A stretch of DNA of 57,416 nt from an uncultured Anaerolineaceae bacterium (GCA_964353875.1 CAYGXU010000007.1:1-57416), one strand, 5' to 3'; positions 22,635 to 57,416 are shown, counted from the stretch's first letter. Notes: generated by a model not told the origin, from the letters alone. Made by a program: numbers and translations.

Positions 22635-22694
22635 GTAAAGCTGCGAATTTCCGAATTTGGAAAATGGAATAGCTAATAAAATTCATCATCATAA

Positions 22695-23004
22695 AGGCCG
22701 TGAAAAGGACAAGTAAACATCGACACTGCAATCCAGCGAAGTGGGGTAAGTGAGAGCCCTCCTTGTAAGACGATGTTGAATGGCCCTTGGAGTTGCAGGG
22801 TGAAAGGGATTGCTGAGTAACCTGTGCCGGATCGCCCCCGTTACCGGGTGCAGGTATCTGACGATAGGTTTGGTACCTGGATGGAGTGAGACTCGATGGG
22901 TGACCGGGTTAAATTCGCATAGTCCCGGTCGGAGAGTCTAAGCGGGGTGGCACCGCGGGCAAGGGATCGCCCGTCCCCACAAGGGATGGGCGATTATGAT
23001 TTTA
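22695..23004 (+). promoter_or_regulatory. T-box riboswitch leader (tryptophan) with terminator
   Basis: T-box sequence GGGTGGCACCGCG at 22945-22957. The terminator has a 12-bp stem, 22966-22977 / 22983-22994, followed by TATGATTTT. Candidate UGG specifier codons lie at 22781-22783 and 22788-22790. The 5' boundary is approximate. Confidence 0.8.
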
Positions 23005-48052: not shown

Positions 48053-48375
48053 CTATCTGCATCGGTTGACAAATCATTACCCTTCTTCATAAGACTTTCG
48101 CTCTCTTCTTGTTGTATGCCGTGCGCTAATGATGCGAATTCGTTCCTCGCGATCCGTATGCACAACCAGCAACAATCGCCTGCGAATTCGCTCTCCCATG
48201 GCTGCAAATCGCGATGGTTAGTAGGGGAAAATTGAATGTCTGGTTTATGCCTCGCTGGGCGAACTACGACAATGGCTGCCATTGGCTGGACGCATAAGAA
48301 AAAAAGGGCGAGTTGACGGCTTCGAGATGAATAGCGCCGATGATACGCTTAGCATATATGCACATTTCTTGAGGT

Positions 48376-49326
48376 CTAATTCGAGCCTAATTTTTCGCTC
48401 TCCTTCGGCCTTTGCTTTGGGCTGTGATGCGACTTCGGGACTCTGCAGGGAAAACAGGCATTAATGAACTCTCTGAGAAAATCGTTCTGCCGAGGTATGT
48501 ACCCCAGTCTTCGAGAAAGCTTATCGATACTGACGGAAATCATACGCTGACCGGGTTCGCTCATGAGCACAATTCTGCTGCCAGTACATGCCTTCCCTCG
48601 AATGTATTCTGCAATATCACGATCTTGATATATTCGATTGCCTGCTACATTAAAAACCTGTCCAAACGCCAGATCCCTTCCAGGGACAAGACACAGGGCC
48701 GATACAACATCATCGAGATGGGCATATTGACCGCCTGCCTCGTATACAACGGGTATATCCTTCCCCTCTCTGGCTTGTTCGATCATTTCAGAAAATTGGT
48801 CCAATCGATCTTGACTGAATACGCCATGGATCCGCATGATGGTCACAGGCAGACCTTCGCGTTGACATGCCAGACTGTATTTCTCACATGCCAATTTGGT
48901 CGTTCCGTAGGCAGGTCCTCCGATCGTGCTTTCCTGCGGATTACAGGGATCCCCCTCGCAGGCGGGGGTAATTCCCGTAGGACCATAAACTACAGCGCTG
49001 CTGGCGAAGATGAAGTGATCTACCCCCGATGCTTTGCAGGCATCAAGCAGATTCAAAGTACCGATCAGATTTTCCTCAATCTCGAGACGATAGTCATCAG
49101 AATAGAAGCTCCAAGCCAGGTGATAAACAGCTTCAATTTTATGGAGAGCAATGTCTAAATCGCTCAGTTTTAGCAGGTCGCCGCGCATATATTCGCAACG
49201 CGAATCCATCGTCATAGAGCCAGGAGAGCGACGGTCAAGCACACGCACCTTGTGTCCCTTGTCAATCAATGAACTCGCTAGAGAACTGCCAATATGGCCT
49301 GCACCACCAGTCACAAGTACATTCAT
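48376..49326 (-). CDS. NAD-dependent epimerase/dehydratase (extended SDR)
   Basis: MNVLVTGGAGHIGSSL matches the GxxGxxG motif, and YGTTK is the catalytic YxxxK. Confidence 0.88.
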   Translation of the reverse strand: MNVLVTGGAGHIGSSLASSLIDKGHKVRVLDRRSPGSMTMDSRCEYMRGDLLKLSDLDIALHKIEAVYHLAWSFYSDDYRLEIEENLIGTLNLLDACKASGVDHFIFASSAVVYGPTGITPACEGDPCNPQESTIGGPAYGTTKLACEKYSLACQREGLPVTIMRIHGVFSQDRLDQFSEMIEQAREGKDIPVVYEAGGQYAHLDDVVSALCLVPGRDLAFGQVFNVAGNRIYQDRDIAEYIRGKACTGSRIVLMSEPGQRMISVSIDKLSRRLGYIPRQNDFLREFINACFPCRVPKSHHSPKQRPKESEKLGSN

Positions 49327-49428: not shown

Positions 49429-49824
49429 CTATTGTGAATTTTCTCGTAAGGGAACAAGCCCCTCGTTCGTCTCAACAAGCAGTTCAACTCCTGTGCCAAG
49501 CAAAACTCCAACAAGATCTTTGTAGTTAGCTTCGTTTACCATATCCTGCGAAGCCACAAATGCCTTCAAGACCTCGAGCAATTTGCTCCCATAGCGAATC
49601 ACTAGTGTTATACCCTCCTCATCATTTTTTCGCAGAATGTGGGCGCGAATATTCTTTTCATCCACGTGGCACTCGAGGGAAAGACGCATAGTCTGGTTGT
49701 AATAGTCCAACGTCAAATCTCCAAAGCCGGAAATTTGGACGTTTGAAATACCACGCAACACTGCCATCGGATCTTTCCATCCGACGAGAGTCTCCTTTAT
49801 GATATCCTCATCGTTATTTCCCAT
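49429..49824 (-). CDS. Hypothetical protein, no recognisable family
   Basis: 131-aa ORF, AT-rich. It is the first cassette downstream of repeat copy A. Confidence 0.55.
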   Translation of the reverse strand: MGNNDEDIIKETLVGWKDPMAVLRGISNVQISGFGDLTLDYYNQTMRLSLECHVDEKNIRAHILRKNDEEGITLVIRYGSKLLEVLKAFVASQDMVNEANYKDLVGVLLGTGVELLVETNEGLVPLRENSQ

Positions 49825-49952
49825 TGTTATCCATTTCTAAATATAGATTCATCGCCGATAACAACAAATAGTCCTTATATCTTCGGCTTCTCCCTGCACT
49901 CAGGGATAAGTTCTCGCGGTTCTAACTCGGTCGCTTCGTAATGAAAAGGTCC

Positions 49953-50200
49953 AGGCGGAGGGAGATTGCAGCGATGTATTCGACGAGCCACCTCCGATTC
50001 GCGAACCTGCGTCTATTTTAGCCGGAAAGCAATGGCATGCAAATTGATATTATCTAATGGCTTGTCGAAGGAAATCGTAGCCGAGCCTGTCCTGAGCTTG
50101 TTGAAGGGATGGCAGCACCTTCCTGGATCGAATGCCCATGGGCATCGAGCCCGAATATTAAATGCAATAAGAGTGTGCATGGAAGTGAGGGGGAGGGATC
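49953..50200. repeat. Island intergenic element, copy A
   Basis: Colinear conserved blocks shared with copies B and C (see findings). No conserved reading frame. Boundaries are approximate. Confidence 0.75.
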
Positions 50201-50371
50201 AGGCCAGAGATGTTACATAAGGGAGTTCACTAAGTTGATAACTAGCAATTCGGTTTTTCTCATGGACACTGCCGCGCGTGTTAGAACCCTGAATTGATTT
50301 TGGCGCTGTAACCCGCAACTGCTCCGACGATTGATTAACCATCATCCGAGGAAGTTGATCCGAGTTGACTG

Positions 50372-51460
50372 CTATGGCATAAATAATGATGAGACGCTTT
50401 CATTCCAAGCAACTTTGACAGCTTGGGGGACAGCAGGATCTCCGAGCAAATTCATTAAATTAGAATTAAAAAGATCTCTTCCGCGCTTTCCTAACGTGGC
50501 GAGGAGCATCAGAAGCCAATCGCACACCTGAACAAAGTTGATCTCGTGGCCTTGAGCGAAATATCTTTCAGCTTGAATTTTTGCCTCGTCGGTTGGCTCA
50601 GTTGCCCCAACCAGAAATAGATAGTCTTCTATCCCAGCAGGAGCCATTTTGGTATTGAATGTCGCAACAAGCCTGGCATGATCGACCTTTCTTTCAGTAA
50701 CTTCTATTGCCAACAGAACATCGCCTTGATTATGAATTGTTATGTCACCTCCTGCACCGGATGCAGCATCAGCGACATTAATACCTTGCCATTCAATTTG
50801 CCAATTAAGTTCGAAATAATCTCGAATAGTCTCAAACATGCACACGACAAGAAGAACTGGATACAAACCACCACTAGGTCTGGACAGCAGGGAGGAAAAC
50901 AGCTGCGCATACTGCTCTAGGCTAATTCGTTGAATACGGGTAAGAGGAACAATCGAATCTTCTCTGAGTTGGGAAAACCTAAAAAGGAGATAATCAAGAA
51001 AAGTGTGAAGTCTAAATTCTTCGCTTGTAATAGACAGATAATCAATTAGGAGTAATAGAGAATCATATCCCCGCTTATCTCGCAGACCCTCCCTGGTAGA
51101 GATGTCGAATCTAACTTGTCTTCTAAAGGTGCTAAGATATGGTCCTTTGGTCGATGGAATACGCCTATTCTGCAGAAAAGGGTTAATTAGCTTTTCATCA
51201 AGGTCACGCGCGTTGAATGCTCTCGGACCGTGGCTCACATATGGAAGATGTATATCGAGTGTATCATCCAAGATCCGAGCTAGAGCACACCCTAGCAGAA
51301 CCTCTCTATATGATTGGGTATTGGACGAAAAGATTGTGTCGAAATGGTCAATCAACACTGGATCAATTTTAGGAAAGCTTCCCTCAAGGACACCGGCTTC
51401 AGCGGTCGAGAAGCTTGCGTTGAGCAGTTTGCTTGCTTGATCGTAATCGATTGTGGCCAT
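50372..51460 (-). CDS. Putative type II restriction endonuclease, PD-(D/E)xK fold (SacI-family-like by recollection)
   Basis: 362 aa. GGDITIHNQGDVLLAIEVTERK fits the D...(D/E)xK pattern. It is adjacent to, and overlaps, a Dam-like methylase gene. Confidence 0.55.
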   Translation of the reverse strand: MATIDYDQASKLLNASFSTAEAGVLEGSFPKIDPVLIDHFDTIFSSNTQSYREVLLGCALARILDDTLDIHLPYVSHGPRAFNARDLDEKLINPFLQNRRIPSTKGPYLSTFRRQVRFDISTREGLRDKRGYDSLLLLIDYLSITSEEFRLHTFLDYLLFRFSQLREDSIVPLTRIQRISLEQYAQLFSSLLSRPSGGLYPVLLVVCMFETIRDYFELNWQIEWQGINVADAASGAGGDITIHNQGDVLLAIEVTERKVDHARLVATFNTKMAPAGIEDYLFLVGATEPTDEAKIQAERYFAQGHEINFVQVCDWLLMLLATLGKRGRDLFNSNLMNLLGDPAVPQAVKVAWNESVSSLFMP

Positions 51461-52358
51461 AGTAATCAGACCCCAAATCGTAGTTCATCCAAAGGCATTC
51501 TTGCCGAAGCTCTTTAACCGAATGGGTTTTCTTTTCAGGAGCATCAAAACGGTACCAGCCGTTGTATAGATCATCCATAAGTTTATTGCGATATCCTGAA
51601 ATCGCAACCATACCATTGACCTGCTTTAATAATTGAGCGAGATGTTTATGCTCATCCTCATCCATCTCATAGGCGTATGCTTTGTCATCACCCCGTGTGC
51701 TATGGAGATAGGGGGGATCACAGTAGAATAAGGTGTCCGGATGATCGTAGAGCATAATTACATCCATCGCTGGCCGATTCTCTATCTGAACGCGAAGAAG
51801 CCTATCAGCTATTTCAGGTAAGGCTTCAACGCCACCAAGCCACCTCGACACCGCTCCCGACATGCCGGATCGGCTGGTTCGCTTGCAGTTTGCCCATCTG
51901 CCCAATGATGCGGTCTGGGCAAGCCCTGTGCGAGTCTGTCTCGCCCGGATATAGAAAAGCCGTCCCCTTTCTAAATCAGAAAGCTTGGTGGGATCGGTTT
52001 CGATTGCCCTATGGAATTCTTCTCGGGAGAAAGGGGTAAGCGAAATTAACCTTACCAATTCATCAGGGCTATCGCGCAGGATACGAAAGAAGTTTGTAAC
52101 CTCTCCATCGATATCATTATATGTCTCAACAGGAGATGGATCTCTATTAAGCAGGACTGCGGCTGAACCAGCGAATGGTTCACAATAGTGGTGGCTCTCC
52201 GGAAGCAGGGGCAGAAGCCATTGGAGATGACTGAATTTACCTCCATACCACCCAAAAGCAATAAGACGCCCGTTATTCTTCCTCTTGCGACGAATTCCAT
52301 TCTCGCTTTGGTCGGCTTCTTTTTGTTCGAGATATATTGAATCTGGCTTGCGTGTCAT
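51399..52358 (-). CDS. DNA N6-adenine methyltransferase (Dam/D12 class)
   Basis: YGGKFSHLQWLL, FAGSAAV (motif I) and CDPPY (motif IV). ATG 52358 has a GGGAG RBS; the ORF opens at TTG 52391. Confidence 0.9.
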   Translation of the reverse strand: MTRKPDSIYLEQKEADQSENGIRRKRKNNGRLIAFGWYGGKFSHLQWLLPLLPESHHYCEPFAGSAAVLLNRDPSPVETYNDIDGEVTNFFRILRDSPDELVRLISLTPFSREEFHRAIETDPTKLSDLERGRLFYIRARQTRTGLAQTASLGRWANCKRTSRSGMSGAVSRWLGGVEALPEIADRLLRVQIENRPAMDVIMLYDHPDTLFYCDPPYLHSTRGDDKAYAYEMDEDEHKHLAQLLKQVNGMVAISGYRNKLMDDLYNGWYRFDAPEKKTHSVKELRQECLWMNYDLGSDYYGHNRLRSSKQTAQRKLLDR

Positions 52359-52407
52359 TTCCCCTACTCCCTTTATTACCAGATAGAACAATAGTGCTAC
52401 TTGTTGG

Positions 52408-52416
52408 ATTATAGCA
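52408..52416 (-). promoter_or_regulatory. Extended -10 element (TGCTATAAT) upstream of the methylase gene
   Basis: The reverse complement of 52408-52416 reads TGCTATAAT, about 50 nt upstream of ATG 52358. The -35 is weak. Confidence 0.4.
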
Positions 52417-52574
52417 TGTATTGTGAGGGAATAAAAGAAGAAAGGACATTCTCGAATATTAAGATTGGTAAAGCGCGATACGACCTCGAAATGGATAATA
52501 GATGCCTTGCGCCTCTTCTTGCATCCATAAATGCTTTGCGATGGGACTAGAGCGGTGCTTGGCAGGAACGGATG

Positions 52575-52830
52575 CAGGCAGGGGGCAGCTTATAGAGGCT
52601 TGTGGAACGATCCCCCTCTAATTCGCGAACTTGTGTTTATTTTGAAATATGACGTAAGTGGCATGAGGAATTGCAGGTGATAAAAGGCTCCTTCAAGTAT
52701 CGTGAAATAATTATGGAATGGCCGGTAAAGATCTATTTGAAGCATAGACGGCATATAGATGCTCCCGTGTTTGCGGCTCAAGCCGAAACATAGTGTTGGA
52801 TGATTTGAGATGCCAAGATGATTATCGATT
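52575..52830. repeat. Island intergenic element, copy B (most diverged)
   Basis: Aligns with copy A through the hairpin, the ATTCGCGAAC block, GTGTTTATTTT and GTGGCATGAGGAAT. Alignment is weaker to the right. Boundaries are approximate. Confidence 0.65.
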
Positions 52831-52884
52831 CCCGGAAAGAAAGATTGACAAGTGAAGCGTTTCTTAAATGTTAGAAGGCATTTA

Positions 52885-53607
52885 TTAATGCTTAAATTTC
52901 CTAAATAATTTCCCTACTGGTGGATTTTCTTCCCATTCAATGTCGCCAAGCTGTTCTATGCTAGCCGATTTAATCAATTCTAATTCTAAGCCAGAAAGAT
53001 CAAACGAGAAATCATTTTCTGGCGCAACAATGATTAAATAACCTCCAGGCCTAACGATCCTAATCATCTCAATAACAGAATCCCTACGACGATTAGTAAT
53101 GATCTTATCTAACATGTATCTTGAGTAGCAAACATGGCAATAGTCTGAAACAAGAGGCAGACCCTGTGAAACATCGCCTAGAATGAAATCTGGAAGTATC
53201 AAATCCCTAATTTGCTTCTTAACATTTGTACGATACCAACAGATGAATTCCTCTTTGTAATCATTAGAACTCCACCTTAATACAGTAGGAACCCAAATTT
53301 TTACAAGATCTTCCGCGGACTGGCGATTATTAAGTGCTTGCCTTACCCTTGAATTATTTAAATCAATACCAATTGCTTGAATGGATGAGAAAGCCCACAT
53401 GAGTGCAAAAGTTTCAGCACCGCCCTTTCCAAAACCGACATTCACAATCTTGTCTACATGACGAATATCATCAATGAACCAAATAAACCTCGATTTATAA
53501 AGCGTTTCAATCTTATTGTAAAAATCCTCAAAATGATTGTAATACGCTTGACGAATAGGAAATTCGGGTCTTAGGCCATCATTAGATTCTGGAGGAGGTT
53601 TAAGCAT
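52885..53607 (-). CDS. Class I SAM-dependent methyltransferase (no DNA-methylase motifs)
   Basis: 240 aa with the VNVGFGKGG glycine loop, AIGIDLN and VRPGGYLII. There is no (D/N)PPY or PCQ motif. Confidence 0.7.
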   Translation of the reverse strand: MLKPPPESNDGLRPEFPIRQAYYNHFEDFYNKIETLYKSRFIWFIDDIRHVDKIVNVGFGKGGAETFALMWAFSSIQAIGIDLNNSRVRQALNNRQSAEDLVKIWVPTVLRWSSNDYKEEFICWYRTNVKKQIRDLILPDFILGDVSQGLPLVSDYCHVCYSRYMLDKIITNRRRDSVIEMIRIVRPGGYLIIVAPENDFSFDLSGLELELIKSASIEQLGDIEWEENPPVGKLFRKFKH

Positions 53608-53757
53608 AGAAATTCTTTATTACTTCTTAGCGTATTGGCGCTTGCAAAGAGCGAATATTCCGAATACTCCCAACATATCCTTGCATTTAGAGAGGCTCTC
53701 CAGCATAACTGCTGTAGCCGCTTCCCAATTAATGGAGTATATAGGAGGTAGGTTATG

Positions 53758-53965
53758 GAAGTGGGTGGGGCGATCTCCCTACAACTCGTCCACCCGCGTT
53801 TATTTTGGCCTAAAACTATGGCATACAAATCGCGATGGTCAGCAAATGAGAATGGGATACCCGGCGAAACCGCAGCCCGGATGGCAGCATCCTCCTGGAC
53901 TGAACATGAATAAGGACCGGGCTCAATGATTAAGTCCAATAAGAGTGTGGATAGAAGGGAGGCGT
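53758..53965. repeat. Island intergenic element, copy C
   Basis: Shares the hairpin, GCGTTTATTTTGGCC, ATGGCATACAAAT, GGATGGCAGCATCCTCCTGGA and CAATAAGAGTGTGGATAGAAG with copy A. Confidence 0.75.
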
Positions 53966-54109
53966 AATGATGGGGTTGGAAAGGTTACAGCAGGAAGATC
54001 GCTCAATGAACCTTATGCAATTCAGGCCTCCTGATGGAAGCGGCCTGTTTTGTGATGCCGCGGGCAGCATAAGCGACCGTCGGCTTGATCCGCTTGTCGG
54101 GCGCCCCCA

Positions 54110-57237
<3,128 letters not shown>

Positions 57238-57250
<13 letters not shown>

Positions 57251-57414
57251 GCATCCTCCGCTTCTGGGGCGGTTGTCGAAGGATTCTCCCTATCCATAGC
57301 CCATCGTGCGGGATTATCTAGGATATATTGTCGTATGCGCTGAAGAGAGTTTTCGTTTCGTATGATGTGTTCGAAATAATTGCGTTGCCAGACAGATACG
57401 CCAGGGGTATTGCG
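57238..57414 (-). CDS. 3' end of a REP-associated tyrosine (Y1, IS200-like) transposase gene; the 5' part lies outside the window
   Basis: My own translation is ...[38 protein letters not shown]...AWLA*. The WQRNY(F/Y)EHIIRNE...YI..NP..W block is the characteristic RAYT C-terminus. Confidence 0.7.
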
Positions 57415-57416
57415 GT

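Follow-up and report, generated by a model that had tools for sequence, protein, structure and literature searches.

Three diverged copies of a non-coding repeat lie between separate modules downstream of a Type I restriction operon in an uncultured Anaerolineaceae bacterium

Direct repeats occur at the flanks of restriction-modification (R-M) units more often than at those of average genes, and insertions of such units with target duplications of 46 to 423 bp, and with no other mobility gene, are documented for Types I to IV (PMC2853133). In the published cases, the identity of the repeats is 93 to 99%, and a related genome shows the target in single copy (PMC2853133, Tables 2 and 3). The criteria applied there were homologues of restriction (R) and modification (M) genes in the insert, an insert of less than 20 kb without other mobility genes, a direct repeat of more than 30 bp, and a single-copy target in a related genome; the flanking repeats were proposed to permit later amplification of the R-M unit (PMC2853133). 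Here we analyze a stretch of 57,416 nucleotides (nt) from an uncultured Anaerolineaceae bacterium (GCA_964353875.1, CAYGXU010000007.1:1-57416; termed the window; one complete contig of a metagenome-assembled genome), in which a non-coding sequence, repeat X, is found in three diverged copies (A, B and C). The copies separate a Type I R-M operon, a lone methyltransferase gene, a Type II R-M pair and a gene for a 131-amino-acid (aa) protein. A preliminary description of the element held that it fits no known layout, which is too strong in view of the documented R-M units. Repeat X is most likely a relic of serial insertion.

Copy A resides at 49867..50290, between the stop codon of a restriction endonuclease gene (50372) and the start of the 131-aa gene (49824). 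Copy C resides at 53654..54060, between the hsdR stop codon (54110) and the start of the gene for a 240-aa methyltransferase (53607). The significantly homologous part of copy B is 52505..52665, and its nhmmer envelope extends to 52741. These limits were taken from a profile built from A and C, which recognizes A itself at E=4.8e-128, and for A and C also from their alignment. Copies A and C are homologous over ~420 nt, or nearly the whole of both spacers, with 254 of 395 aligned positions identical (64%) in the pairwise alignment. Copy B has only the left ~160 nt of X in common with them; in its right half, to 52830, no significant similarity to A or C was found by nhmmer, by the A+C profile or by alignment.

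The similarity exceeds that of dinucleotide shuffles, with local-alignment z-scores of 15.8 (A/C), 8.6 (A/B) and 3.6 (B/C). Single-sequence nhmmer searches yield E-values of 4e-17 for A/C, 5e-5 for A/B, and 4e-5 to 8e-4 for B/C, and the A+C profile, made without B, recovers copy B at E=1.1e-12 over profile positions 14-173. Thus, the similarity beyond shuffled controls that the preliminary description had set as its test is present. The sequence blocks that it quoted are all in place, as are three same-orientation copies, one in each spacer of ~500 nt between minus-strand units, and neither nhmmer nor the A+C profile reveals a further copy in the other ~50 kb of the contig. Its copy extents needed revision, because the homology of A and C is wider (~420 nt) and copy B is shifted to the left. 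A candidate fourth copy at 48197-48291, downstream of an epimerase gene, was rejected. Copy C alone detects it at E=0.05, but the A+C profile does not find it, nor does it find a 33-nt match at 48205-48237, which we therefore treat as chance. The repeat is real and locus-specific.

The copies are 55-64% identical overall and ~55-62% identical in the shared core, and the best ungapped stretch, of 37 nt, reaches 81% (A/B) and 68% (A/C). Within the 78 nt of the left core that align without gaps, the three pairs differ at 33, 35 and 30 positions, so that the copies are approximately equidistant. The left ends of all three are at nearly the same position of the element and directly abut the next module. 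At the left end, copy A stops 43 nt short of the ATG of the 131-aa gene and copy C 47 nt short of the methyltransferase ATG, and copy B starts a few nucleotides from the point at which the homology of the R-M module to other genomes stops (~52500).

The flanking units are found elsewhere in different surroundings. At least three further genomes (L003/L004, L005/L006 and L007-L009) carry the pair formed by a D12-class DNA methyltransferase (Dam) and a SacI-like endonuclease, 70-79% identical in nucleotide sequence and each time placed between different housekeeping genes. The homology of the pair extends from ~52500 to within ~10 nt of the endonuclease stop codon. Relatives of hsdR with 83-89% amino acid identity are followed by McrBC (L010/L011 and L012) or by an unannotated open reading frame (ORF) (L013), and the homology of hsdR to L010, L012 and L013 stops at the stop codon. 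In the 19 loci that were fetched, nhmmer produced no real match to X, the sole matches being the pattern-selected sites in L001 and L002. The proposal that the element separates unrelated units is therefore borne out, as both the R-M pair and the hsdR operon exist in other contexts without X. These comparisons show that the flanking units are independent modules that move separately.

Repeat X is non-coding, as had been proposed. Mismatches between A and C are distributed over the codon phases as 27/26/29 in the alignment, which shows no periodicity; the frame is interrupted by indels of 1, 6 and 7 nt; none of the six frames aligns much better than the others, and each has stops; and small ORFs of X on both strands have no convincing match in Pfam, NCBIfam or PHROGs. 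These same data bear on the idea that X was once a small gene on the plus strand, present in several copies and since decayed; frame +0 reads ...GG(R/S)L...RSPxNSxTxVYF... in all three. The homologous frame is open for 84 codons in A and 95 codons in C, two indels between conserved blocks (1 and 14 nt) sum to a multiple of three, and one plus-strand frame of the ungapped left core exhibits a weak excess of third-position changes (30/25/43). However, this excess is not significant (p = 0.066) and disappears over the whole ORF, copy B has an in-frame stop there, and neither the equal alignment of the six frames nor the protein family searches point to a gene. A gene remnant is distinctly improbable.

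We also find no sign of RNA structure. On both strands, X folds no better than dinucleotide shuffles, with minimum free energy (MFE) z-scores between -1.3 and +2.3 (+0.35 to +2.25 for the cores of A, B and C and the left part of A; -0.6 to -1.3 for the left parts of B and C). Rfam has no match inside X, at the gathering score or at E<=5. Compensatory changes are absent from the 5-bp stem proposed for the left end, although three sequences give this test low statistical power. This stem consists of a G-run opposite a C-run, in which 93% of cells can pair in register and 87% can still pair after the partner is shifted by three columns. An apparent left-stem covariation (GGAGG/CCTCC, GGGGG/CCCCC and GTAGG/CCTAC) was rejected, because the arms are out of register between copies and no double changes occur when they are placed in register. 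Inverted repeats conserved between copies are likewise absent, and only chance-level inverted pairs of 10-19 nt occur, at non-homologous positions. The stem-loop that the preliminary description placed at the left end is thus a G-run and a C-run in which no pair has changed on both sides, and its designation of the element as structured is not supported by the folding, Rfam and covariation results. Because these three signals are all missing, its suggestion of a small RNA (sRNA) is improbable, and a hairpin like that of integron attC sites is also unlikely.

The conservation between A and C is even. Their longest perfect runs, of 13 and 11 nt, are neither longer nor more numerous than if an identity of 62% were evenly spread (permutation p = 0.24 and 0.35); windowed identity likewise shows ordinary variance (permutation p = 0.77). 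The colinear blocks to which attention had been drawn therefore do not stand out from permuted controls. This evenness means that the copies resemble homologous DNA decaying evenly, and in sequence terms it corresponds to what neutral decay would predict, not to what would be expected of a functional motif or structure.

Two possible motifs were considered and set aside. A sigma-54-like arrangement on the plus strand (TGGCAT-N5/6-TTGA/TCGC/TTGC) was spotted post hoc, has a different spacing in copy B and has nothing downstream of it. ATGG motifs number 17 on the plus strand, versus 7 expected, and iterated ATGG combined with C-rich, unstructured minus-strand RNA might resemble the rut-like region of a Rho-dependent terminator. 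However, an excess of G over C on the plus strand is general in the intergenic DNA of the contig and gives this candidate no special support.

In composition, X (42-50% GC, with the same plus-strand bias of G over C) is like the other intergenic DNA of the contig, and is unlike hsdR (62% GC) and the 240-aa methyltransferase gene (37% GC). A crude ORF map of the contig reveals many intergenic gaps of 300-600 nt in which G exceeds C on the plus strand regardless of gene orientation. Because such gaps are numerous, spacers of ~500 nt are not unusual for this genome. The divergence between copies of X is 0.36-0.45 (Jukes-Cantor (JC) 0.49-0.69), and the resident R-M pair differs from its nearest known relative at third codon positions by 0.40-0.43 (JC 0.57-0.64). 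Given values of similar magnitude, the duplication could feasibly date from the arrival of the module.

Searches of other collections produced no credible copy. A pattern of 19 of the positions that are invariant in A, B and C has two matches only in 185,579 species genomes, both limited to the pattern itself and thus attributable to chance, and it has none in JGI metagenomes and IMG/VR. A two-block pattern from A and C is absent from viral contigs, and blastn of all three copies against plasmids and phages gave no match. Exact-pattern scans are insensitive at such divergence; therefore, the absence of X elsewhere is weak evidence beyond close relatives. A close relative of the epimerase was sought in the JGI collection for synteny, and only proteins with 27-34% identity were present.

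These searches also bear on whether X is a small non-autonomous mobile element that makes local hops, similar to a miniature inverted-repeat transposable element (MITE), which was one of the options raised in the preliminary description. The repeat is indeed non-coding, intergenic and a few hundred nucleotides long. Against mobility, the copies share no terminal inverted repeats, no target-site duplications are seen at their ends, and they are only 55-64% identical. All three lie within 4.2 kb and point the same way; the other 53 kb of the contig contain none, nor does any collection searched. A mobile element of this kind is very improbable.

We tentatively favor, with somewhat less than even confidence, the reading that the copies of X are decaying direct repeats of local intergenic DNA that were left by successive insertions. 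They would be paralogous and would represent ordinary intergenic DNA of this genome that is decaying neutrally. Foreign modules would have been inserted one after another at one place downstream of the Type I R-M operon, each event leaving a copy, and the order hsdR / X_C / methyltransferase / X_B / Dam-endonuclease / X_A / 131-aa gene would be the result. While still similar, the copies could have allowed unequal crossing-over, and with it amplification, loss or exchange of modules. The array would now be frozen, because even in the most similar pair, A and C, identity runs uninterrupted for at most 13 nt, a length insufficient for RecA to recombine efficiently. The copies would today serve solely as spacers. 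Those named X_A and X_C, which are followed after 43-47 nt by the start codons of genes with no separate upstream region, may supply or relay transcription to these genes.

Several observations weigh against this reading. Published long target duplications are 93-99% identical, compared with 55-64% here. Two successive duplications would predict one pair of copies closer than the others, and the left-core copies are approximately equidistant (33, 35 and 30 differences in 78 nt). The common left end resembles the defined end of an element, or a point of recombination, more than it does a random duplication boundary. The GC content of the methyltransferase gene remains at 37%, a point against very old residence. 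Finally, neither the pattern scans nor the epimerase relatives in JGI led to a related genome with a single-copy empty site, and for this reason we describe duplication at insertion only as an inference.

The position of the copies immediately upstream of genes raises the possibility that X is a reusable regulatory spacer that stops transcription from upstream, restarts it for the next unit and serves as an exchange point for gene shuffling. Models for such a spacer exist in the promoter-terminator cassettes (PeSLs) of T4-type phages, which are small composite motifs of a terminator stem-loop and an early promoter (PMC2839356, PMC4122927) and which border unrelated ORFs of hyperplastic regions, whose exchange they mediate (PMC4122927). 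The reuse of promoters upstream of non-homologous genes is also widespread (PMC3575422). At this locus all units are co-directional, and copy A contains, on the gene strand, a sigma-70-like site (TTTGCA-17-TAAAAT, 50043..50015). In addition, X_A and X_C stop 43-47 nt short of the ATGs of the 131-aa and methyltransferase genes, neither of which has its own upstream region.

However, the transcription signals of the region do not match this proposal. Between 47900 and 54200, intrinsic-terminator-like hairpins number 0, versus 6.0 +/- 2.2 expected in shuffles, and sigma-70-like sites number 5, versus 10.8 in shuffles. When aligned by hand, B and C do not retain the promoter-like site of A at the corresponding position, and the even conservation leaves no motif that stands out. 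Moreover, the R-M module has an upstream region of its own at 52359..52500 on the minus strand, where an extended -10-like sequence, TGCTATAAT, at 52416..52408 is followed by TAGCAC...TGTTCTA. This region is conserved in the window, L003, L005 and L007. Because of the conserved TGCTATAAT region, the R-M pair appears to bring its own promoter-like sequence, so that copy B, which is located beyond it, is not needed there; the shared regulatory leader suggested earlier is thus not supported. In all, a regulatory spacer is unlikely.

The elements upstream of the R-M module can be read in all four genomes as CATGCTA(T/C)AAT followed by TAGCAC..TGT(T/G)CTA, at 52380-52430 (minus strand) in the window, at ~7350-7400 in L003 and at ~9040-9090 in L005 and L007. 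They are probably the promoter and operator of the R-M module itself.

The shared left end invites comparison with systems that capture gene cassettes. X could be the boundary site of such a system, in which a site-specific recombinase that is not encoded on the contig cuts at the left end of X and inserts circular modules, as an integron integrase does at attC. Integron attC sites are imperfect palindromes of 57-141 nt that are conserved in structure rather than in sequence and that carry R''/R' core sites. The co-directional gene-repeat-gene-repeat array resembles a row of cassettes, the left ends of all three copies nearly coincide and directly abut the next module, two modules are compact and lack a promoter region, and the equal divergence of the copies would be expected if each came from a different source. 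On the other side, X has no hairpin potential, reading of the copy ends reveals no core pair (RYYYAAC / GTTRRRY), and no recombinase gene is in or beside the array within the annotated 48-57 kb. The same R-M module exists elsewhere without X, the invariant-position pattern finds no X in 185,579 species genomes, JGI metagenomes or viral contigs, and the composition of X is that of host-like intergenic DNA. We consider a cassette boundary distinctly improbable, yet retain a site-specific form of it at low probability because of the low identity, the star-like relation of the copies and their shared left end.

In that form, the copies of X would mark the boundaries of an undescribed gene-capture array in an Anaerolineae-like (Chloroflexota) bacterium, with an off-contig recombinase, a site at the left end of X that is defined by sequence and not by a hairpin, and modules stacked downstream of the Type I operon. 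A candidate for the recombinase is the HUH/Y1 transposase-like gene in that operon. We regard such an array as a long shot; the shared left end and the equal divergence are what it accounts for best. If true, it would matter much more than relics of insertion. Cassettes bounded by a defined sequence, with no hairpins, would amount to a novel type of gene capture.

From 49.4 to 57.4 kb, the window contains genes on the minus strand only, in the layout described previously. Furthest upstream in the direction of transcription is the 3' end of the Y1 (HUH) transposase-like gene (57236..57416), which overlaps the start of hsdR and continues past the contig end. Its translation includes ...YFEHIIRNE... 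and matches the C-terminus of a 230-aa gene at 9321-10013 of L013, located between hsdS and hsdR in a metagenome-assembled genome (MAG) of Anaerolineales; the Pfam Y1_Tnp match of this counterpart is faint. By analogy with L013, the Y1 transposase-like gene appears to belong to the hsd operon. To find such a gene inside a Type I R-M operon is curious, and it could be relevant to DNA acquisition at the locus.

The hsdR gene (54110..57250, minus strand, 62% GC) encodes the Type I restriction R subunit, with the Pfam domains HSDR_N, SWI2_SNF2 and T1RH-like_C and a PADLOC REase_I score of 1118 bits. Members of its family with 76-90% protein identity are found across MAGs labeled Anaerolineales, Gemmatimonadota, Betaproteobacteria, Armatimonadota, Bacillota, Planctomycetes and Actinomycetota, among others, a distribution that points to very wide horizontal spread. 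Operons of this family embed varied extra genes (AAA_13, AbiEii and Y1_Tnp-like), and McrBC is next in two relatives.

The first gene of the R-M module is that of the D12-class N6-adenine DNA methyltransferase (319 aa, 51399..52358, minus strand; PF02086 E=3e-22; PADLOC MTase_II E=9e-55), whose start codon, the ATG at 52358, was set by alignment with 319-aa relatives. It overlaps the second gene, which encodes the SacI-family restriction endonuclease (50372..51460, minus strand; PF09566 E=1.9e-7). Endonuclease relatives with 70-79% aa identity are located in other genomic surroundings. The methyltransferase gene between copies C and B (52885..53607, minus strand, 37% GC) encodes a class-I S-adenosylmethionine (SAM) methyltransferase of 240 aa (PF08241 E=8e-7), for which a search of 5.8 billion proteins returned only the self-match. 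It has no (D/N/S)PP(Y/F) motif, and a label as a defense or DNA methyltransferase is therefore unsupported. Of the genes previously assigned to defense, only hsdR and the R-M pair can be shown to belong there; the protein of 240 aa is a class-I SAM methyltransferase of generic type, and that of 131 aa has no known function.

The 131-aa gene (49429..49824, minus strand) begins 43 nt downstream of the left end of X_A, and its product has no match in Pfam, PADLOC or NCBIfam. Its family is tiny, with 20 cluster representatives at E<=1e-3 among 1.84 billion, and some relatives form the C-terminal half of proteins of 264-281 aa. One homologue (L018, 3244-3630) is within a co-directional array of eight small unannotated ORFs that resembles an immunity-gene or cassette array. 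In the fetched contexts, no X is found near homologues of the 131-aa protein. Beyond this gene is one for an NAD-dependent epimerase (48376-49326, minus strand). At a distance from the array, a full-length T-box leader (RF00230, 97.9 bits versus a gathering score of 93) is present at 22691-22981 on the plus strand and is the only Rfam family on the contig.

As far as the tests described above can tell, the labels of structured module, sRNA, attC site, MITE and gene remnant do not apply to X, whose likeness to each known system is partial. The array resembles integrons and the clusters of at least two attC sites lacking integrases (CALINs) in that co-directional genes are each separated by a copy of a repeat that ends sharply at the next unit. 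However, X is conserved in sequence, is longer than attC (160-420 nt) and has neither hairpin potential nor an inverted repeat conserved between copies; no RYYYAAC...GTTRRRY pair is present on either strand of the copy ends, and no integrase is present in the annotated 48-57 kb.

Similarly, X and the PeSLs are both short, non-coding and repeated, both separate unrelated ORFs that are co-directional and horizontally exchanged in a plastic region, and both are proposed recombination points. In contrast to these elements of phage genomes, X is in a bacterial chromosome, is 160-420 nt long and shows no stem-loop signal or positionally conserved promoter. Where a PeSL would have a conserved terminator stem-loop and then a promoter, X has no terminator-like site, and the promoter-like site at that position is in copy A only.

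With reused or "putative mobile" promoters, X shares homologous upstream sequence before non-homologous genes of one genome, whereas those families are highly similar (PMC3575422) and X is much more diverged and at most a putative promoter. In X, the best 37 nt reach 81% and 68%, and overall identity is 55-64%. Mobile promoters reportedly show at least 80% identity over 50-100 nt.

In arrangement, the locus resembles R-M units inserted with long target duplications, although near-identity of the repeats, a trait of the published cases rather than a formal criterion, is not found here (64% for A/C and ~55-62% in the shared core). Non-coding direct repeats, hundreds of nucleotides long, stand on both sides of a Type II R-M pair of ~2.1 kb. 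Homologues of R and M genes (the SacI-family endonuclease and the D12 methyltransferase) lie between X_B and X_A, and inserts of ~2.2 kb (B to A) and 3.4 kb (C to A) contain only the genes listed above. The repeat measures ~160 nt in all three copies and ~420 nt in A and C. As in the described cases, no transposase or integrase is inside the unit, the repeats are, within the contig, unique to the locus, and the insert's GC content is unlike that of its surroundings. The locus differs from them in having three copies around two successive units, one of which is not an R-M unit, and in that these copies, at 55-64% identity, all have the same left end. If copies of X are indeed decaying direct repeats left by insertion, the locus would be a fossil record of defense-island growth, in which units with independent mobility (the Type I operon, the Type II pair and an orphan methyltransferase), each bracketed by the same local spacer, were stacked at one spot. 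The association of R-M units with long flanking direct repeats would then extend to Chloroflexota and to a nested, three-copy case.

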